Shown here piece by piece: positions 2,907 to 55,516 of a stretch of 64,000 bases of DNA. The DNA comes from an uncultured Nitrososphaerota archaeon (GTDB taxonomy: Archaea; Thermoproteota; Methanomethylicia; Nezhaarchaeales; B40-G2), in assembly GCA_964626365.1 (NCBI GenBank), contig CAZVDL010000003.1, positions 23,783-87,782 of the forward strand, in the 5' to 3' direction. The position numbers and the translations under genes were made by a program. Every line of letters starts with the position of its first letter. The stretch's first letter is position 1. Under the pieces are notes generated by a model. That model worked only from the letters and a program-made list of their open reading frames with translations. It was not told the DNA's origin and did not search any database.

Positions 2907-3917
2907 TTGCCTTTAACCGTGGTCGTAGGAGGCTTCTTTGGAGACGAGGGCAAGGGCAAGATAATCTCCTACCTCGCTGTTAAGGACAAGATAGACCTCG
3001 CTGTCAGGGTGGGCTCAGTTAACGCAGGGCACACAGTGATACTTGAGGATGGTAGAACCGTTAAGCTGAGAATGGTGTCGACCGCCTTCACGAATAGGAG
3101 CTGTAGGTTGCTAATAGGGGCTGGAGCCAACGTTAACCCCAAGATCTTCCTAAGCGAGGTGGAGCTCACCAATACCAAGGATAGGGTGGGCGTAGATTAT
3201 CAGTGCTCCATCATAGAGGAACATCACATTGAGCGCGATAGGAAGGACGCCCACTTAGCGGGTAAGGTTCAGACCACCGGCCAAGGCGTAGGGCCGGCCA
3301 TAGAGGACAGAGTTAAAAGGATAGCTAAGCTGGCTAGGGATGTTAAGGAGCTTGAACCCTTCCTCACTGACGTAGCTGCTGAGGTGGATGAAGCCCTTAG
3401 GGCAGGTAAAAACGTCCTGTTAGAGGGAACTCAAGGATGCTTTCTGTCACTATACCACGGCACCTACCCGTACGTCACAGCGAGAGACACGACAGCCGCT
3501 GCAGTGTGTAGCGAAGTCGGGGTTGGGCCGACGAGGGTTAACGACGTGCTGGTGGTGTTTAAGGCCTACGTGACTAGGGTGGGAGGAGGACCTTTGCCAG
3601 GTGAGCTGCCAGAGGATGAAGCTGAGCGAAGAGGATGGAGCGAGATAGCGACGGTTACAGGTAGGAAGAGAAGGGCTGCGCCGTTTAACTTCGACCTCGC
3701 TAGGAGGGCTATCATGCTTAATGGGGCGACGCAGATAGCCATAACTAAGCTGGACGTCCTCTTCCCTGAAGTTAAGGGGGCTCGAGGTGTAAAGGAGCTA
3801 AGCCGGGAGGCTTTAAAGTTCATAGAGGACGTGGAGGGTAAGCTTGGGGTTAAGGTGGCTTTAATCGGTACGGGGCCCAGCATAATGGACATTGTGGACC
3901 TTAGAGAGGAGGGTTAA
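2907..3917 (+). CDS. purA: adenylosuccinate synthetase
   Basis: GDEGKGK P-loop, GHTV and TTGQGVGP motifs; 336 aa matches the short archaeal form. Confidence 0.85.
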   Translation: MPLTVVVGGFFGDEGKGKIISYLAVKDKIDLAVRVGSVNAGHTVILEDGRTVKLRMVSTAFTNRSCRLLIGAGANVNPKIFLSEVELTNTKDRVGVDYQCSIIEEHHIERDRKDAHLAGKVQTTGQGVGPAIEDRVKRIAKLARDVKELEPFLTDVAAEVDEALRAGKNVLLEGTQGCFLSLYHGTYPYVTARDTTAAAVCSEVGVGPTRVNDVLVVFKAYVTRVGGGPLPGELPEDEAERRGWSEIATVTGRKRRAAPFNFDLARRAIMLNGATQIAITKLDVLFPEVKGARGVKELSREALKFIEDVEGKLGVKVALIGTGPSIMDIVDLREEG

Positions 3918-3999
3918 GGGAAAGGTTTAAGTGGAGGCTTTGAACGAGAAGACCAACAGCTTCATTTCATCGAAGAAACCCGATGAGGTGAGGTCATAG

Positions 4000-4680
4000 T
4001 TGTCAGGGCCGAAAACCACTAACATGTTAGCGTGGATAGGTAGACGTAGAGAGAAGAGTATCTTGGAGAGGGCTGAAAGACACTTAGAGAGGGTGGTAGC
4101 CTCAGTCGAGGCCCTCAAGAGGACGGTCTACGCCTTCTGCGAAGGAAACCGAGAAGGAGTTGAGAAAGGGTTTGAGGAGATCTTCAGGTTTGAGAGGGAG
4201 GCTGACGATATTAAACGCAACATCCTAAACGAACTGTTAAAAGACGTCTTCCACCCCATAGATAGAGATGAAATCACGCGGCTACTGCTAACCATGGATG
4301 ATATAGCCTCTAACGCGAAGGGAGCCGGCGCTAGGATAACCTTTATGTGCTTCACCATAGATGACGAGGAGGTCTTAAGGGGCCTTAAAGAGGTAGCTGA
4401 TAGGCTAGTTGATATAGCTAGGGAAACTTATAAGGCGTTAAAGGAGCTTGTGGAAAGCCCGCGGAAGGCCTTGGAGACCGCCAATAAGGTAGAGGAGATG
4501 GAGGAGAACATAGACGATATAAGGAGAAACCTGTTGAGAAGAATCCTCGTAATAGGGGACTCCTTAGGCCCCTCGAGACTGGTGTGCTTAAAGGATGTGG
4601 TTGATAGCATGGAGAACGTAGCTGATAGATGTGAGGATGCTGCGGACCTCATAAGGAGCCTAGCCATACTAGCTACGTGA
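4000..4680 (+). CDS. DUF47 family protein (PhoU-like putative phosphate-transport regulator)
   Basis: about 220-aa helical protein with a repeated charged-helix pattern matching the TIGR00153/DUF47 family; the real start is probably the internal Met near 4024. Confidence 0.5.
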   Translation: MSGPKTTNMLAWIGRRREKSILERAERHLERVVASVEALKRTVYAFCEGNREGVEKGFEEIFRFEREADDIKRNILNELLKDVFHPIDRDEITRLLLTMDDIASNAKGAGARITFMCFTIDDEEVLRGLKEVADRLVDIARETYKALKELVESPRKALETANKVEEMEENIDDIRRNLLRRILVIGDSLGPSRLVCLKDVVDSMENVADRCEDAADLIRSLAILAT

Positions 4681-20218: not shown

Positions 20219-22021
20219 CTACCTACGCTGCTTGACCTTCTCTAAGGCCTCTAAGGCCTCCATTTCATCGGGGGTGAGCTCGCCCCTATACTTTGTGGTT
20301 AATAGCCTAGCGTGCTCGGCTGGTACGTCGACGTAGAGGACGTCGCCCTCCTTGATCTGCCTCCCCACCATGACGTCGCCCCTAATGGATATCGCCACCG
20401 CCAGTCCCTTCGTGGCCTCCTCTATAGGCTTACCTTTATCTTGAATCTGCATTATCACGCCTACGCGCCTACCATCCTCCCTTATCAACGGGTAGCCAGG
20501 CCTTATTCTACCGCTCAACACCTCAACCCCTACGATGGCCGGGTCGCTCCTCCTGAAAACGTAGCCTGGTAGAAGCCTTATGCAGCCGGGCCTTATTAAG
20601 CTAGATAGCTCACGGCGCTTCTCCTCCTCCCTAACCTTGTTAACCCAGTTCTGATACTCCTCAAAAACCCTATAGATCACGTTGCTACTGAAGACAGGGA
20701 TACCCCTCGACTTTAATTCATCCTCCACCTCGGGGGACACCTTTACGTTGAAGGCTAGTATGACGCCTAGGACTTTGTTGGTCTCCTTGACTATGGAGGC
20801 CTCCATGATGTCCCTCTTCGTTATAGGGCCTACGTCGGCCACCCTCACCGGTATATTTAGGCTCCTCAGCTTGTTGACCATGGCCTCGAGGGAGCCTAAG
20901 GTATCAGCTTTCACTACTACCCCCTCTGCCTCGGTGGTGAACCTTATGCCTGCTAGCTCCTCTGAGATCGTCTTCCTAAGCTCGTCCACCTCAGCCTCGC
21001 TAGCGGCGACCATTAATGGCGAGCCCGCTACAACCTCGTCTAACCCAGGCGCAACGACCCTTACGCCAGCCGCGGCAGCCACCTCATCTACGCTCTTAAA
21101 CTTATCCTCTGGGTCCCTCATCTCATCAAGCGGTTTAGGTAATAACAGGGCCCTGACCCTGGTAGTTACGGGCCCCGAGAGGCCGCCTAAGACGACGATG
21201 TCGTTTCGCCTGATAACCCCGTCGTGGATGATGACGTCAGCCACGGTGCCTACGCCGGGCATCTCCCTACACTCAAGTACCACCCCTCTAGCTGGACCCT
21301 TGGAGGCCTTCAACTTACCCATCATATACCTCTGGGTTAAGCCAGCTAGGACTAGTAGTAGATCCGGTATACCCTCACCTGTCAAGGCGCTCGTCGGGAC
21401 AATGGCCAGCGTCCTGGTAAAGTCCCTTACCCTATCGTAACGCTCAGCGTTGAAGCCCTCGTAGGAAAACTGCTCAACAATCCTATACGTCAACTCCTCC
21501 ACTCTACGCTGGACATCGGGACTTTGAGCCTTGAATGACTCGATGAAAGGCGCGTACTCTCTAGGCTTCCACCCAGGGACACGGTCTACCTTGTTAGCGG
21601 CGACGACGAAGGGGACTCTACGCTCCCTGAGTATCCTTAGGCTCTCGTAGGTTATCTCCTCAAAGCCCTCTAAGATGTCTATGACGAGTATGGCTATGTC
21701 GGCTATGGACCCTCCTCTACGCCTAAGGTTTACGAATGCTTCGTGTCCAGGCGTATCTATTACTAGGAAGCCTGGGATCTTCACTTCAGCCTTAAACGAC
21801 CGCATCAATGGGCCGCAGATGCGTTCAAGCGCTGACCACGGCAGAAAGGAAGCGCCTATATGTTGGGTTTACCACCCGGCAGGTAGCACCTGCCGGGACA
21901 TGGCCCCAACTTCCCTGAACATCGTGGCTGTGCCTCTAATTTTATCCAGCAGTAGCGTCTTACCTACGTCGACGTGGCCCAACACGCATACTATGGGTGA
22001 CCTCACGTACTCCTCCTTCAT
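20219..22021 (-). CDS. infB: translation initiation factor aIF5B (IF2 homologue), interrupted by a 30-nt putative BHB mRNA intron
   Basis: Exon 1 (22021..21899) encodes [41 protein letters not shown], carrying the G1 P-loop. After 30 nt that contain an in-frame TAA, the frame resumes with TQHIGASF...ICGPL...[15 protein letters not shown] and the remaining roughly 550 aa of a normal aIF5B. Confidence 0.85.
21869..21898 (-). other. putative bulge-helix-bulge (hBHBh') intron within the infB mRNA
   Basis: Coding-strand sequence: GTTGGG-GCCA-TG^T-CCCGGCAGGT-GCT-ACCTGCCGGG-TGGT-AA^A-CCCAAC. It has a 6-bp exon helix, a 4-bp central helix (GCCA/TGGT), two 3-nt bulges on opposite strands and a 10-bp intron hairpin. 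Cuts after the 2nd bulge nucleotide give an exact in-frame junction. Confidence 0.6.
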
Positions 22022-24143: not shown

Positions 24144-25181
24144 ATGCCGGCGGAGCTTAAACCGTGGAGGAGGAAGGTCGTAATAAGCGACGAGATCCTA
24201 GAGAAGTTACCAAAGGAGGTTGTACAAGCGCTGCGCGATAGCTCACTCAGTGACAAGGAGAAGCTTAGAGCGTTATTACAACATCTTTACGAAGTATTTC
24301 GAAGCTACATAGCTGTTGCGGCGCTTATAGGTGTACCAGCGGCAACTGTATATAATTGGATGATTCGCTTAAACGTTGACATAAGGGAGTATGAGGCATG
24401 TAAGGAGAGGAGGCTTGCTAAAATTAAAAAGGTCGCGCCTAAGGAGATGGCGAAAATGTGGTTCTTTGCCCACTCCGATGGATGTGCTATCGCAATGGGT
24501 CGGCAGGTCTATGTCCAGGTCAGAACCCCCGACCCATGGCTGATACACCTCTTCACAGAGCTTTTTGGGAGGCATGTCGACATCAAGGTTAAGCCCGTTA
24601 TTGACTTTGACGGCGGGTCAAATTGGCATGCATGGTGCTACTTACCTATTGAAGGGTATTCATGGATCCTAAGCGATGAACCACCATCTATCATGACTGG
24701 TGAAGGATTATGGGAGGCATTGGCGGTATTGATTGATACGGAGGGCACAATAACCATACGGCGTGAGAAGAGGGGCAAGGCTACGGAAGTAACCTTAGTG
24801 ATCCCATCTGAGAATTTAAGGTTGCTTCAACGTATCAAGCATGAACTACGCAGCAATGGCATTAAAGCTAAGCTAGGACGTATTAAAGAGACAGGCCAAG
24901 AAACTAAAGTAGGACGGCTAAATAGTGACTGCTGGCGACTCGCCATCTATGCTAAACCATCGCTCATAAGGGTGTTGGAGGAGGTCGCGGATAGGCTTAC
25001 ACTTCCATGGAAGCACATGCTGGCCAAGCTCAGCTTAAGGGTATTGCGTGAGCAGTTAGCGTGGAGTGAGGTTGAGGATTTAGTGAGTGAAGTAAGGCGT
25101 TTTAGACGGAGAACCTTAGATGTCAGCAAGCGTTATATCTTGGAGCAGCTCGCCGAAAACCCTCCACGCCCATCAACCTAA
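24144..25181 (+). CDS. free-standing HTH plus double LAGLIDADG-like domain protein (homing-endonuclease-like)
   Basis: 345 aa; N-terminal HTH AALIGVPAATVYNWMIR, then two LAGLIDADG-like blocks (WFFAHSDGCAI and LAVLIDTEGTITI) spaced as in I-DmoI-type enzymes; lower GC and A/T-ending codons than the flanking genes. Confidence 0.4.
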   Translation: MPAELKPWRRKVVISDEILEKLPKEVVQALRDSSLSDKEKLRALLQHLYEVFRSYIAVAALIGVPAATVYNWMIRLNVDIREYEACKERRLAKIKKVAPKEMAKMWFFAHSDGCAIAMGRQVYVQVRTPDPWLIHLFTELFGRHVDIKVKPVIDFDGGSNWHAWCYLPIEGYSWILSDEPPSIMTGEGLWEALAVLIDTEGTITIRREKRGKATEVTLVIPSENLRLLQRIKHELRSNGIKAKLGRIKETGQETKVGRLNSDCWRLAIYAKPSLIRVLEEVADRLTLPWKHMLAKLSLRVLREQLAWSEVEDLVSEVRRFRRRTLDVSKRYILEQLAENPPRPST

Positions 25182-35082: not shown

Positions 35083-35182
35083 GCCGGGGTGGCCGAGTGG
35101 CCTAAGGCGCCAGCCTGGAGCTACTCGACGGAGAGCTGGTGCCCCTTAACGGGGCGCGTGGGTTCAAATCCCACCCCCGGCG
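35083..35182 (+). tRNA. tRNA-Ser(GGA) with a 13-nt canonical (37/38) intron at 35121-35133
   Basis: acceptor GCCGGGG/CCCCGGC, anticodon stem CCAGC/GCTGG, loop CUGGAG + intron + A, long variable arm GCCCCTTAACGGGGCGC, T-arm GTGGGTTCAAATCCCAC. Confidence 0.85.
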
Positions 35183-35322: not shown

Positions 35323-36316
35323 CTAGGCCTTTCTCCTGCCTTTCCACATGGGTGGGTACGTGCCGGGCTCCATGATCACCCTCTTGGTCTTAGCCACAAG
35401 GCCCTTCTCGGCCTCTAGGATCTCCTTGGCCGACATGAGGGCCGTGGCTAAGGCTACCAACTCCCCCTTCTGGGTCATAAGCGCGACCTCTGAGCCCTTC
35501 CTCACGTCCGAGGTCAGCCTAAGCACTCCTGGAGCTGCTAGGCTAGCGCCGTGGCAGATGGCGTCTACGGCTGAGTCCCTTATTACGATCTTGGGCATGT
35601 CCTCGACTACCTTCTCCATGGGTTGGAGGGCTCTTCTCAGCCAACTTTCATCTCCCTCCTCCCTCCACAGGTCGTAGGCGTCCTTGAGGTCGTGGAGGGT
35701 TACGAGGGTCGAGTCCTCTTTGAACACTCCGCTACGCGTCCGCCTAAGCTCCCTCATATGCGCGCCCACGCCTAGTACCAGGCCTATGTCGTGGCATAGC
35801 TTACGTATGTACGTTCCAGCCTCGCAGCTAACCCTCATCAACACGAGCTTCCCCTGGACCTCGAGGACCTCGAGCTCGTGGATCCTCCTAACCCTTAACC
35901 TACGCTTAACGGAGGCTCTTAAAGGAGGCCTCTGATAGATAGGGCCTACGAACTCGGCACAGACCTCTCTGACCCTGCTCTCAGGCACAGCTGAGTGCAG
36001 CTGCATAACGCATATGTACTCCTTCGACTCCCTCGACATTAACCATAGCAGCTTCCTAGCCTTGTTTAAGGCTATAGGCAGCACGCCGGTTACCTTGGGA
36101 TGACCCCGCCCCTCAGGGCTCTAGGGTCCCTCCATGACCGGCGCGGTCCACGTTCAGTATGCGTTTAACCCACGCGGTCACCTCGTGAGACGTAGGGCCC
36201 GGCGGCTTGTCTAGGTTTATTACGCCCTTCTCCAAGAGCTCCTCGATGCTCCGCTCCTCAGGCCTACAGCCGTAGGGCGAAGGCTCCTCCTCGCTCTTCA
36301 CTAGGTACTCAGCCAA
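35323..36316 (-). CDS. cbf5: tRNA/rRNA pseudouridine synthase Cbf5 (box H/ACA RNP), split by a 19-nt mRNA intron
   Basis: Exon 1 (36316..36116) ends ...[10 protein letters not shown] (TruB catalytic motif) followed by a TGA. Exon 2 (36096..35323) continues [17 protein letters not shown]... in another frame and carries the PUA domain. The intervening tgaggggcggggtcatccc (36097-36115) removes the stop and frameshift. Confidence 0.85.
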
Positions 36317-40648: not shown

Positions 40649-40738
40649 GCGGCCGTCGTCTAGCCTGGTCTAGGACCCTAGCCTCCCGACCAGCAGGGGA
40701 GCCAGCTAGTGGCCCGGGTTCAAATCCCGGCGGCCGCA
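40649..40738 (+). tRNA. tRNA-Gly(CCC) with a 15-nt canonical BHB intron at 40689-40703
   Basis: acceptor GCGGCCG/CGGCCGC, D-stem GTCT/GGAC, anticodon stem CTAGC/GCTAG, loop CUCCCG + intron + A; central helix CTCC/GGAG with bulges CG^A and CC^A; T-arm CCGGGTTCAAATCCCGG. Confidence 0.7.
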
Positions 40739-43848: not shown

Positions 43849-45117
43849 TTACTCCTTGGCCAGCTTGGCGATGTAGAAGCCCGCTGTGTTGTGTAGGTGT
43901 GGGTATAGCCGCTGGGCTTTCCTGCCGGGCGTGGTGGCTATGCCTATGAAGGGGCGTTGATCTACGGGCTCTAGCCCCTGTTTACAGGCCTCCTCGACTA
44001 CGTGCTCACATTCATCCCTCGTAAAGGTGCAGGCCGAGTAAATGATGAGGGAGCCTCTGGGAGCCGCTTCAGCGGCGGCCTTTATCAGGGCTCTTTGAAG
44101 CCCGATGAACTCCTCTAGCCTCTCCTTATTCACCCATAGCTTGACCTCAGGCTCATAGCATAGCCTGCCTAGGTTGCTGCATGGAGGATCAACTAGTAGG
44201 ACCGTGGGCTTCCTTAGGCTTAGGGGGCTTAGGCGGGAGTCGCATAGGACGGTGTCGACGTTTACCTTAACTCTCCTGGCTAGCGTGCGTATTAAGGCGC
44301 ACCTGGGTGGGGAGACCTCGCACGCTACGCTGTAGTCCTCTAGCTGCGCCAGATGGGTGACCTTCCCTCCGGGGCCGCCTGTGAGGTCTACGTGGAGTGC
44401 GCCTTTAGCGACGGCTACGTGTCCTACTAGGGCGCTGGCCTTATCCTGAACGTGGTAGAGGCCGGCTTTATACTCGGGGGTCGCGGTTAAACTACCTTTA
44501 ACCTGCTTGACGAGCAACACGTCGTGTAGGTCTGAGTCGGCTTTAAGCTTGAAGCCCCTCTTAGAGAGCCTCTTAGCTAATTCCTCCCTCGAAGTGAGGT
44601 GGGTTGATACCCTAAGCCACCTGGCTGGGTCTCTTTGAAGCCTCTTAAGTAGGGCTTCAAGCTTAGGGGCTCCTGCCTTCATTAAGGCCTCCAATATCCA
44701 CATAGGCGTGGAGTACTTGATCGAGAGACGCTCGAGCCCCGTGAGATCGGCATATGCGTCCTCCACCTCCAGCCTCCCTAGAAGCTTTAAAGCCTTGGAG
44801 TCTATCCTCGAGAGCTTGGCTACCTCGCTTAAACGCGGGTCGCTAGGTGAACACCTCTTAAACTTGAGGAGGTAGACTAACACCCTAGCTGAGCATAGCC
44901 TCTCGAGAGGCAGCCCCTCGACGTTTAACCCAGCTAGCTTGAGGAGCCTATCTAGGAGGAGGTAGTTTCTTAGAGCACCCAGGGCAACCTCCTTAACCTC
45001 CGCCCTAAAGCCTGACGGAGCACCCCCATAGAGCTTGAAGGCGAGGCTCCTTAAGCTCACCTTCTCCTTAAGCGCCCTAACCGTCAGCTTAGCCGCGGCC
45101 ACCCAGGGCGACAACAT
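43849..45117 (-). CDS. NOL1/NOP2/Sun-family RNA (cytosine-C5)-methyltransferase
   Basis: SAM fold with LLVDPPCSNLG (motif IV) and IIYSACTFTRDE (motif VI, catalytic Cys); 422 aa. Confidence 0.7.
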   Translation of the reverse strand: MLSPWVAAAKLTVRALKEKVSLRSLAFKLYGGAPSGFRAEVKEVALGALRNYLLLDRLLKLAGLNVEGLPLERLCSARVLVYLLKFKRCSPSDPRLSEVAKLSRIDSKALKLLGRLEVEDAYADLTGLERLSIKYSTPMWILEALMKAGAPKLEALLKRLQRDPARWLRVSTHLTSREELAKRLSKRGFKLKADSDLHDVLLVKQVKGSLTATPEYKAGLYHVQDKASALVGHVAVAKGALHVDLTGGPGGKVTHLAQLEDYSVACEVSPPRCALIRTLARRVKVNVDTVLCDSRLSPLSLRKPTVLLVDPPCSNLGRLCYEPEVKLWVNKERLEEFIGLQRALIKAAAEAAPRGSLIIYSACTFTRDECEHVVEEACKQGLEPVDQRPFIGIATTPGRKAQRLYPHLHNTAGFYIAKLAKE

Positions 45118-53352: not shown

Positions 53353-53762
53353 GCTTCTTGGCTAGGAGGTTGGCGATAGTCGACGTGGACCGCTGCGTAG
53401 GCTGTCAATGCTGCATGTTCGCGTGCACTAGGCGCCTCGACTATGCGGGGCTCGGTAAGTCTGCAATCAAGGTTAGGTCTGCAGGCGGAGTAGAGAGAGG
53501 GTACGTAGTCATCGTATGTCGCGCCTGCCCAGACCCCCCTTGTGCTAAGGTGTGCCCTGTAGACGCTATAAACCTAAGGAAAGGTGGAGGGGTTTTCGTC
53601 AACCCTTCACTATGCATAGGCTGTCAGCTATGTAGCGAGGCCTGCCCCTTCGGAGCCGTGGGGTGGGATGTGGAGATCAATAAGCCCGTCATCTGTATGC
53701 ACTGTGGTTACTGCGTGGAATTTTGCCCCCACAACGTCCTTAAGGTAGAGGAGGTGGAATGA
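53349..53762 (+). CDS. 4Fe-4S ferredoxin (poly-cluster), partner of AOR
   Basis: four CxxCxxCxxxCP motifs in 137 aa; overlaps the aor start. Confidence 0.7.
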   Translation: MSFLARRLAIVDVDRCVGCQCCMFACTRRLDYAGLGKSAIKVRSAGGVERGYVVIVCRACPDPPCAKVCPVDAINLRKGGGVFVNPSLCIGCQLCSEACPFGAVGWDVEINKPVICMHCGYCVEFCPHNVLKVEEVE

Positions 53763-55516
53763 TGATACCTTCTAGGGTCCTATACGTGGACTTAGAGAGG
53801 AGGAGGTTTAAGGTAGAGGATAGAAGGGAGCTCTTTGAGAAGAGGCTTGGAGGGACTGGCGTAGCCATAGAGCTTCTTAAAGAGGAGTGCCCTAGAGGTG
53901 CAGACCCTCTAGGCCCCGACAACCCCATAATCTTCGCTGTAGGCCCCCTCACAGGGCTCTTACCCATGGCGTCTAAGACCGTGGCCATGTTTAAGTCCCC
54001 CTTAACTGGGAGCCTAGGCGAAAGCCACGCTGGGGGTAGGAGCGCTATAGCTATTAGGTCGGCTGGCTACGGAGCGATAGTCATCAAGGGCGCTAGCAGA
54101 TCCCCCGTGTACCTAGTCATTGATAGCTCAGGAGCTAAGTTTAGAGAGGCATCAGCACTATGGGGTGTAGCTAGTAGCTTCACCGTAGGTAGGGTGATTA
54201 GAGAGAGGGAGGCTGGAGCTGGGCTTAGAACCATTATGAGGATAGGTAGGGCTGGTGAGAAACTCGTAGCCTACGCCTCAGTGATCACCGAGACGTACAG
54301 ACACTTCGGTAGGCATGGATTAGGGGCCGTGTTTGGCAGTAAGAAGCTTAAAGCGATAGTCGTGCAGGGGGACCAAGCGTTAAAGATAACAAACCCAGCT
54401 CAGTACAAGGATCTCTACTTAAGGGTGTTTAATGAGGCCGTTAAGTCAGCCTTAATGAAGAAGTACCATGACCTTGGCACCGCCGCCAACATTCTACCTC
54501 TAAACTCTATTAAGGCCCTACCCACCAAGAACCTCACTCAGCAGGGCTTTGAAGGAGCTGAGGAAATATCCGGCGAGAACCTAGCTGAACAGTACTTAGG
54601 TAGACGTATAGCTTGTTCTCACTGTCCCGTAGCTTGCATCCACCTAGCAGCTCTACGCGAACCCTACGTGGACGAACCCTACTTCTATAAGACTACGTTC
54701 GTAAGCTATGATTACGAGCTCCTCTACGCTCTCGGCTCCATGATAGGGGTATCGAACGTGCCAGGGCTGCTCAGGCTTATACATGAAGTGGACAAGCTAG
54801 GGCTCGACGCCATGAGCACAGGGGTGGCTTTGGCGTGGGCTACGGAGGCCTACCTCAACGGCTTAATAGGGGACGCTGAGACCATGGGGGTCAAGCTAAG
54901 TTGGGGAGATGCGGAGGCTTACCTTAGGGCCGTCCAGTACATAGTGGAGCAACCTAACGAGTTCTACTCGTCGTTAGCTAAGGGCGTAGAGGTGGCCGCC
55001 TCAAGGTACGGCGGCTTAGATTACGCCTTAAGCTTTGGAGGGCTCGAGATGCCTGGGTATCAAACTGGGCTGGCCGCCTACGTAGGCTACCTTACGGGGG
55101 CGAGGCATAGCCACTTAGACTCAGCGGGCTATAGCTTAGACCAGAAGGCGTTAAAGGAGGGAAGGAAGCTTAGCCCACAAGAGGTAGCTGAGGCCCTAGT
55201 TAGGGAGGAGGCTTGGCGCCAAATATTGACCAGCCTAGTAGTCTGCCTCTTCGCTAGGGAGATCTATAGGCCTGGTTTAGTCGCTGAGGCTCTAAGCTTA
55301 ACAGGCTTGGACTTTAGCGTGGAGGACCTTAATAGGCTGGGGCTAAACATACTAAGGGCGAAGCAGGAGTTTAAGTTTAGAGAGGGCTTCGACCCCTCGA
55401 AGCTCAGGATACCTAAGAGGATCCTCGAGGCACCGACGCCCTCTGGAGGGATAACGGAGGAAGACGTTAGGGAGGCCGTGAGGAGGTACTTCGACTTACT
55501 CTTTTCTTCTTCTTAG
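53759..55516 (+). CDS. aor: tungsten-containing aldehyde:ferredoxin oxidoreductase family protein
   Basis: 585 aa; the N-terminal VLYVDLERRRFKVEDRRELFEKRLGGTGVAIELL and central domains are characteristic of the AOR/FOR/GAPOR family. Confidence 0.85.
   Translation: MMIPSRVLYVDLERRRFKVEDRRELFEKRLGGTGVAIELLKEECPRGADPLGPDNPIIFAVGPLTGLLPMASKTVAMFKSPLTGSLGESHAGGRSAIAIRSAGYGAIVIKGASRSPVYLVIDSSGAKFREASALWGVASSFTVGRVIREREAGAGLRTIMRIGRAGEKLVAYASVITETYRHFGRHGLGAVFGSKKLKAIVVQGDQALKITNPAQYKDLYLRVFNEAVKSALMKKYHDLGTAANILPLNSIKALPTKNLTQQGFEGAEEISGENLAEQYLGRRIACSHCPVACIHLAALREPYVDEPYFYKTTFVSYDYELLYALGSMIGVSNVPGLLRLIHEVDKLGLDAMSTGVALAWATEAYLNGLIGDAETMGVKLSWGDAEAYLRAVQYIVEQPNEFYSSLAKGVEVAASRYGGLDYALSFGGLEMPGYQTGLAAYVGYLTGARHSHLDSAGYSLDQKALKEGRKLSPQEVAEALVREEAWRQILTSLVVCLFAREIYRPGLVAEALSLTGLDFSVEDLNRLGLNILRAKQEFKFREGFDPSKLRIPKRILEAPTPSGGITEEDVREAVRRYFDLLFSSS

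Follow-up and report, generated by a model that had tools for sequence, protein, structure and literature searches.

A predicted bulge-helix-bulge intron within the coding sequence of the archaeal translation factor aIF5B

The gene for aIF5B, a universal translation factor, is split in a 64,000-nucleotide (nt) stretch of contig CAZVDL010000003.1 from an uncultured Nitrososphaerota archaeon of the Nezhaarchaeales; this whole stretch is hereafter referred to as the window. The coding sequence is interrupted between the P-loop and switch I by a 30-nt insert, which, judged from its fold, its position and its counterparts in related genomes, is very probably an archaeal bulge-helix-bulge (BHB) intron that is removed by splicing. 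The insert has every property by which a BHB intron can be recognized in a sequence. The evidence consists of the geometry of the motif, the exact agreement of the predicted spliced product with genes that lack the insert, and the conservation of the paired structure among more than 50 loci.

Layout and fold of the split aIF5B gene

The first-pass annotation of the window had described a gene made of two exons separated by 30 nt with an in-frame TAA, and each of these elements was found where it had been placed:

22021-21899, minus strand: aIF5B exon 1, 41 codons, with ATG at 22021, carrying the G1 P-loop GHVDVGKT and ending in ...REVGAM
21898-21869, minus strand: predicted BHB intron, 30 nt (tcccggcaggtgctacctgccgggtggtaa / TCCCGGCAGGTGCTACCTGCCGGGTGGTAA), with an in-frame TAA at its 3' end
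21868-20219, minus strand: aIF5B exon 2, 549 codons plus stop, starting with TQHIGAS (switch I), with DTPGH downstream, and running to the C-terminus

The reading frame is the same on both sides of the insert, exon 1 continuing into exon 2 at 21868, and removal of the 30 nt leaves a joined open reading frame (ORF) of 590 amino acids (aa). The predicted spliced product aligned without a gap across the junction with the aIF5B of Aeropyrum pernix (5fg3; E = 1.4e-211), and likewise with that of Methanothermobacter (M. thermautotrophicus, 1g7r), ...REVGAM-TQHIGAS in the window being matched with ...KEAGGI-TQHIGAS in the aIF5B of solved structure. Its score against the NCBIfam equivalog NF003078 was 852.6 bits, with a cut-off of 468. 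The gene is preceded by NDK and followed by the genes for ribosomal protein S6e, aIF2-gamma, a PIN protein and an Rpb7-like subunit, and this neighbourhood (NDK, S6e and aIF2-gamma) is the same in relatives without the insert. The P-loop (21959-21982, minus strand) reads GHVDVGKT, with Val replacing the usual His, in all of the Nezhaarchaeales-like and Methanomethylicia sequences, whether or not they carry the insert, and GHVDHGKT in the Desulfurococcales and Sulfolobales relatives.

The minimum free energy (MFE) fold of the 56-nt segment around the insert is a canonical hBHBh' motif. It is the same structure that the first-pass annotation had drawn, namely, a 6-bp helix, two 3-nt bulges, a 4-bp helix and a 10-bp hairpin with a GCT loop, and its parts are as follows:

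21905-21910, minus strand: 5' strand of the outer helix h (GTTGGG, exon 1), 6 bp, pairing with 21862-21867
21862-21867, minus strand: 3' strand of the outer helix h (CCCAAC, exon 2), within the Thr-Gln-His codons
21901-21904, minus strand: 5' strand of the central helix H (GCCA, exon 1), 4 bp with one G-U pair
21871-21874, minus strand: 3' strand of the central helix H (TGGT, intron)
21898-21900, minus strand: 5' bulge TG^T, with the predicted cut between 21899 and 21898, after the second nt
21868-21870, minus strand: 3' bulge AA^A, with the predicted cut between 21869 and 21868, after the second nt
21875-21897, minus strand: intron hairpin h', 10 bp (CCCGGCAGGT/ACCTGCCGGG), with loop GCT

The orientation of the bulges is canonical, each lying 3' of its own strand of the central helix. 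The fold energy was -33.3 kcal/mol, compared with -17.9 +/- 2.8 in 200 dinucleotide shuffles (z = -5.58), none of which was as stable. When both strands of the window were scanned strictly, for an outer helix of at least 6 bp and an inner helix of at least 10 bp, this one motif was detected, and none was detected in 20 dinucleotide-preserving shuffled windows. Looser BHB patterns are frequent by chance (at 4/6 bp, nine compared with an expected 7.2; at 3/4 bp, 326), and the BHB motif alone would thus be insufficient evidence for an intron. The quality of the aIF5B motif, its position and, above all, its conservation exceed chance.

Other candidates in the window were rejected. Permissive scans with helices of 2-4 bp gave 326 and 227 matches, mostly chance fusions of neighbouring genes, and were uninformative; after a tightened scan, in which each candidate was spliced and the product tested, the convincing cases were aIF5B and cbf5 only. 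One compact BHB-like match at 43915-43936 (plus strand) is antisense to the gene of an RsmB/F methyltransferase, and its fold is a simple long hairpin without a BHB. Another, at 54996-55019 (plus strand), was drawn by the scan as a BHB of 24 nt whose outer helix has 9 bp, but its MFE structure is a hairpin with a symmetric internal loop. This very stable sense-strand hairpin (54975-55040, plus strand; -31.4 kcal/mol, z = -3.9) is embedded in the intact coding region of an aldehyde ferredoxin oxidoreductase gene (53759-55516).

Inserts at the same junction in related genomes

A protein-based scan with one genome per species returned 52 loci, in ten of which the distance from the P-loop to TQHIGA was 29, 30 or 33 nt above the 81 nt of loci without an insert; two of these ten inserts break the frame. 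All ten loci come from metagenome-assembled genomes labelled Nezhaarchaeales/Nezhaarchaeota, Methanomethylicia/Methanomethylicota, Thermoprotei or Nitrososphaerota. In metagenomes, a scan with a pattern that comprised only the fixed flanks GGGGCCATG and TGGYARACCCARCAYAT with 15-45 nt free between them identified 41 further loci, all in aIF5B at ...GAM/TQHIGA (the slash marks the junction), with inserts of 22, 25, 27, 29, 30, 33 or 37 nt. Altogether, 51 other loci, in Nezhaarchaeales-like and Methanomethylicaceae/Methanosuratincola genomes, carry an insert of 22-37 nt at the same codon junction. Among the 38 distinct inserts, 26 keep the frame and contain a stop, 12 shift the frame, and none can be read through. 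The comparison with close relatives, which the first-pass annotation had proposed as a check, thus gave one of two outcomes: the insert was either precisely absent or present as 22-37 nt at the same junction.

These loci bear directly on the possibility that the 30 nt arose as an artefact of sequencing or assembly, for which no supporting sign was found and to which we assign a negligible chance. Counterparts of the insert are present in 51 other loci, which come from many samples and sources and were assembled independently, and the inserts vary in sequence and length by lineage. In addition, the gene is called as split in the contig of the window and in two Methanosuratincola-type contigs, L095 and L096, in the first of which (L095) the presence of the insert was confirmed.

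Genes without the insert define the junction at nucleotide resolution. A protein search with the Methanomethylicaceae-type sequence detected full-length proteins (P0124, P0126 and P0127) with a contiguous ...REVGAMTQHIGAS... segment. In L097, the DNA encoding P0124, the site reads GAG GTC GGG GCC ATG/ACC CAG CAC, that is, GTCGGGGCCATG/ACCCAGCAC, which is the predicted spliced junction. The cut sites proposed earlier from the BHB geometry accordingly give a gapless product that is identical, nucleotide for nucleotide, to a genomic junction without the insert. The closest pair with and without an insert, L077 (27 nt) and L097 (none), is 86% identical over 723 nt and is separated by a clean 27-nt gap at the predicted borders. 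In L100, the DNA encoding P0127, the insert-less site reads GTT GGT GCA ATG/ACC CAA CAT, with GGT GCA at two codons that are frozen in insert-bearing genes. The Methanomethylicaceae loci L097 and L100 look like cases of recent and precise intron loss, followed by relaxation of the synonymous sites. The insert-less sites lie at about 1600-1630 in both loci; L097 retains GGGGCCATG/ACCCAG and L100 has drifted to GGTGCAATG/ACCCAA.

Four symmetric cuts are possible within the two bulges, and only the canonical one, after the second bulge nt, gives a uniform GAMTQHI in 41 of 41 copies; a cut after the third would replace the conserved Thr in 14 copies. Cleavage between the second and third bulge residues is what is expected of a BHB motif (PMC2738675).

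The structure of the motif was then compared among copies. In a test of whether the exact MFE structure equals the BHB, 27 of 41 distinct copies differed; the differences were mostly one-nucleotide slips of the bulge register or competition from the flanks, and this test was therefore replaced by constrained folding, in which the central helix, both bulges and the three inner pairs of the outer helix were forced. The canonical BHB was no more than 1.5 kcal/mol above the unconstrained optimum in 38 of the 41 distinct copies, with a median difference of 0.1. For pair counts, a covariance model built from 11 protein-search loci was used to align all 52 copies. A standard pair was formed in 94.9% of the alignment cells, compared with 29-39% when the 3' partners were slid by 1-3 columns, and pairing was 95.5% for h, 92.2% for h' and 100% for the central helix. 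Covariation of the intron hairpin, a further check proposed at the outset, was observed: eight of its ten pairs had changed on both sides (103 cells). The covariation score was 0.374 against 0.134 in shuffles, and none of 500 shuffles reached 0.374. In this hairpin, as the alignment indicates, the pairing is conserved while the sequence drifts.

The exonic part of the motif behaves differently from its surroundings. The inner GGG/CCC pairs of the outer helix are invariant in the 41 distinct copies, the CAA/CAG variation in exon 2 retains its pair (U-A or U-G), and the intron strand of the central helix is TGGC or TGGT, giving G-C or G-U. Within the motif, the Gly, Ala and Thr codons are GGG, GCC and ACC in every one of the 11 protein-search loci, whereas every other four-fold-degenerate codon in the 47-codon span is represented by two to four different codons in the same loci. 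From these comparisons, the exonic third positions in the motif are frozen only where the insert is present, a sign of selection at the RNA level on exonic synonymous sites.

The insert-bearing genes form two clades on single-gene neighbour-joining trees, which are without support values. The Nezhaarchaeales-like clade, which holds the window, has inserts of 29, 30 or 33 nt; the Methanomethylicaceae clade has inserts of 22, 25, 27 or 33 nt, and L074, the only copy with 37 nt, is placed just outside it. The nearest database entry to the latter clade is P0121, labelled Ca. Methanosuratincola petrocarbonis (95% identity). An insert-less clade (L007, L009, L014 and L051) is placed between the two insert-bearing clades, and the insert-less P0124, P0126 and P0127 are nested in the 27-nt group. 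This pattern fits an old gain followed by several precise losses, as described for cbf5, on a tree too weak for events to be counted.

The split has left its mark on annotation. Database proteins at least 74% identical to the spliced product are all N-terminally truncated, with lengths of 490-565 aa, including that of the window's own gene (P0001, 521 aa). In insert-bearing lineages (entries P0001-P0006, P0008, P0012, P0029, P0036, P0121, P0122 and P0128-P0186), the truncated aIF5B calls are 480-565 aa long and without the P-loop, accompanied by an orphan upstream peptide of about 46-50 aa, compared with 590-612 aa in insert-less relatives. On the source contig, exon 1 was called as an orphan ORF of 50 aa without a Pfam match, the two ORFs lying at 2764-2916 and 3001-4566 of the source-contig locus (L094). 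Some gene callers take as start codon an out-of-frame TTG within GTTGGGGCC and translate across an insert of 3n+1 nt, giving artefactual N-termini such as MGPWLRSEAQWQ-TQHIGA. Entries for aIF5B that lack the P-loop affect completeness estimates, marker-gene phylogenies and structural models.

Proposed splicing pathway and alternative explanations

We propose the following pathway, in which the enzymes, the cleavage and ligation themselves and the fate of the intron are most likely those of tRNA and cbf5 splicing, by analogy. An hBHBh' motif would form in the transcript from the 12 nt at the end of exon 1, the intron, and the 7 nt at the start of exon 2. The tRNA-splicing endonuclease EndA would recognize the two 3-nt bulges, 4 bp apart, and cut after the second nt of each, and an RtcB-type tRNA ligase would join ...GCC AUG to ACC CAA..., the intron being released, probably as a small circle. 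Across the copies, the expected spliced sequence would be ...GGGGCCAUG joined to ACCCAR..., without the 22-37 nt. Translation of the joined mRNA would give the 590-aa aIF5B, with the P-loop contributed by exon 1, and switch I (TQHIGA) and everything downstream by exon 2. Unspliced mRNA would yield only a 50-aa peptide from the start codon, and its exon 2 would be without a P-loop.

Several points weigh against this interpretation. The act of splicing is itself deduced, all of the support being at the level of sequence. Genes for EndA and RtcB were not evident in the window, where neither was searched for; the presence of the splicing machinery is implied by the intron-bearing tRNA genes and by the BHB-split cbf5 described below. 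A second, intact aIF5B was not among the matches, which are single loci, so that a copy elsewhere in the genomes is possible. The alignment used for the pair counts was fitted to the model structure, which biases those counts, and the invariance of the central helix and of the inner outer-helix pairs in the 41 metagenome loci was partly built in by the search pattern; for these exonic positions, the unbiased support is that of the 11 protein-search loci.

If EndA acts on this mRNA, its cleavage could serve mainly for decay or down-regulation, with productive ligation rare or absent. The yeast tRNA endonuclease cleaves some mRNAs without ligation (PMC10485636), and the cbf5 intron has been suggested to act in negative regulation (PMC2738675). 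However, the cell still needs full-length aIF5B, for which no uninterrupted copy was found among the matches, and the cut positions are constrained to one in-frame ligation product in all 41 copies, for which decay alone would not select. We consider decay as the main outcome very unlikely; it may be an added regulatory layer on top of productive splicing.

The gene could instead be a pseudogene, or a split gene that is never spliced, with exon 1 giving a 50-aa peptide and exon 2 either translated on its own or left untranslated. Gene callers do see two ORFs, of 50 aa and 521 aa, and the sequence-level nature of the case for splicing also speaks for this explanation. It is difficult to reconcile with the universal presence of aIF5B, no other copy of which was among the matches, and with strong purifying selection on both exons in more than 50 loci, where synonymous change is abundant. 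Exon 2 lacks the P-loop, and no start codon is conserved after the insert. The BHB geometry, the covariation of the hairpin and the frozen synonymous sites would be left unexplained, and the insert-less relatives carry exactly the fused sequence. An unspliced gene is, on these grounds, highly improbable.

Splicing could also be replaced by ribosome bypass of the insert, through hopping of the T4 gene 60 type or other recoding, with the hairpin acting as a stimulator. A stable hairpin directly after the last codon of exon 1, and a short untranslatable gap of 22-37 nt, are features that such a mechanism might use. Hopping needs matching take-off and landing codons, and here the take-off codon is ATG whereas the last insert codon is CAA, CAG, TAA or TAG in 38 of 38 inserts, which offers no landing match; in the window, moreover, the codon after the take-off site is TCC rather than a stop. 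Neither the two 3-nt bulges with their 4-bp spacing nor the pairing of exon 1 with exon 2 would be needed for bypass, yet both are conserved, and we regard bypass as extremely improbable. Two further classes of element were rejected outright. A self-splicing group I or II intron has a ribozyme core of hundreds of nt, compared with 22-37 nt for the inserts, and the Rfam matches in the window are tRNAs only. An intein is incompatible with inserts that all have a stop or a frameshift and none of which exceeds 12 codons. BHB splicing of the aIF5B mRNA remains the interpretation that we hold with high confidence.

Other introns in the window and comparison with known systems

The first-pass annotation had also stated that cbf5 is split in this window, and this proved to be so: the gene (exon 1, 36316-36121; exon 2, 36101-35323; minus strand) contains a 19-nt canonical hBHBh' intron, AGCCCTGAGGGGCGGGGTC, at 36102-36120 (minus strand). 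The intron falls inside the catalytic Asp codon of GHGGTL/DP, and its removal restores GHGGTL-DPKVTG in a 324-aa Cbf5 with DKCLD, TruB_N, TruB_C_2 and PUA domains. Because GTLDP is interrupted by the intron, a search for this motif gave no match, and the gene was located via TSHE and GHGGT instead. Two core genes of the RNA machinery, aIF5B and cbf5, are thus split within one window of 64 kb. Published cbf5 introns are from Desulfurococcales and Sulfolobales only and have mostly relaxed BHBs (PMC2738675), and the lineage and the strict motif of the cbf5 intron in the window may extend this picture.

Two tRNA genes in the window also carry introns:

35083-35182, plus strand: intron-bearing tRNA gene, with 16 nt at the anticodon-loop intron position where the model has 3; missed by ARAGORN
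40649-40738, plus strand: intron-bearing tRNA gene, with 19 nt at the anticodon-loop intron position where the model has 4; anticodon unnamed by ARAGORN

When the aIF5B motif (21862-21910, minus strand) is numbered as an anticodon arm, the GGG/CCC stem occupies 29-31:39-41, CAU occupies 34-36, and the intron lies at 37/38. A GGG/CCC stem and CAU are hallmarks of initiator tRNA-Met, the tRNA on which aIF5B acts. The motif may be derived from, or be a mimic of, an intron-bearing pre-tRNA for initiator tRNA-Met, or the likeness may be a coincidence forced by the codons; ARAGORN detected no tRNA genes in 56 loci, and hence no initiator-tRNA sequence for comparison. It is conceivable, though in our view unlikely, that BHB introns in mRNA are broader and have been overlooked in Methanomethylicia/Nezhaarchaeia, and that the aIF5B intron is functional rather than a passive passenger. 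If this were true, the cell could make a core initiation factor only with the help of EndA and RtcB, which would couple the capacity for translation initiation to that for tRNA splicing.

Elsewhere in the window, a 345-aa ORF at 24144-25181 (plus strand), between a ribosomal-protein cluster and GluRS, has a weak, sub-threshold match to LAGLIDADG_3 (E = 2e-4; 22.0 bits against a cut-off of 22.5). Counterpart ORFs of 344-345 aa without a Pfam match occupy the equivalent position in L094 and L097.

A BHB intron in aIF5B would be a case of a known mechanism, not of a new one. The view of the first-pass annotation that cbf5 is the only established archaeal coding sequence with a BHB intron agrees with the literature: cbf5 was the only further BHB intron reported in archaea until a case in the 5' untranslated region (UTR) of HVO_1309 was added (PMC7714728, 2020), and a 2023 review counts these two and expects more mRNA cases (PMC10485636). 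Searches of the literature on aIF5B, Nezhaarchaeota, Methanosuratincola, Verstraetearchaeota, Methanomethylicia and coding BHB introns, with most subscription journals outside their coverage, found no report of an intron in aIF5B. Within the searchable literature, archaeal mRNA splicing by the tRNA endonuclease has so far comprised one intra-coding case (cbf5) and one 5'-UTR case, and aIF5B would be the second archaeal coding sequence to need BHB splicing. The putative intron lies in a core gene for a universal translation factor, has a strict canonical motif, and has been kept across two major methanogen-related lineages with clear gain and loss, which makes it relevant to both archaeal RNA biology and genome annotation.

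One of the closest known systems is the cbf5 intron (Watanabe 2002; Yoshinari 2006; Yokobori 2009, PMC2738675). Both are short BHB elements in a coding sequence (16-44 nt in cbf5, 22-37 nt in aIF5B), often of lengths that are not multiples of three, and both interrupt the most conserved functional motif of the protein, namely, the catalytic Asp codon in cbf5 and the stretch from P-loop to switch I in aIF5B. They share cuts, predicted in the case of aIF5B, between the second and third bulge nt, a lineage-specific presence with apparent secondary loss, and a variable internal sequence. The two differ in their hosts, a pseudouridine synthase and a translation GTPase, and in their lineages, the cbf5 introns being known from Desulfurococcales and Sulfolobales, the aIF5B intron from Nezhaarchaeales-like and Methanomethylicaceae genomes. 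The aIF5B motif is a strict canonical hBHBh' in nearly all copies, whereas most cbf5 introns are unconventional or relaxed and need a heterotetrameric endonuclease. Splicing of cbf5 was shown by cDNA and by cleavage in vitro, whereas that of aIF5B is predicted from sequence alone. For related organisms, a metatranscriptome (Ca. Methanonezhaarchaeum fastidiosum YNP3N; PMC12700198) and a cultured isolate (Methanosuratincola petrocarbonis LWZ-6; PMC12244365) are already available, and splicing of aIF5B is thus directly testable.

With the BHB introns of archaeal pre-tRNA and pre-rRNA, which are processed by EndA and RtcB, the aIF5B intron shares the motif and the predicted cut geometry. Its hairpin intron is within the size range of tRNA introns, 11-175 nt (PMC2738675), and its exonic part is laid out as an anticodon arm. 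In contrast to pre-tRNA, the host is an mRNA without a tRNA body, and splicing would have to compete with translation of the 41-codon exon 1. The HVO_1309 intron of Haloferax volcanii (PMC7714728) is likewise a BHB-flanked segment of an mRNA, in that case removed by the splicing endonuclease; unlike the aIF5B intron, it is 46 nt long, belongs to a euryarchaeon and lies in a 5' UTR, so that it is independent of the reading frame. Finally, the cytoplasmic splicing of HAC1/XBP1 in eukaryotes resembles the pathway proposed here in that an endonuclease cuts paired stem-loops in an mRNA and a tRNA ligase (RtcB in metazoa) joins the ends, by which the frame is restored or changed. The endonuclease there is IRE1, the cleavage motif is another one, and the splicing is a regulated stress response; the likeness to aIF5B is thus a functional analogy only.

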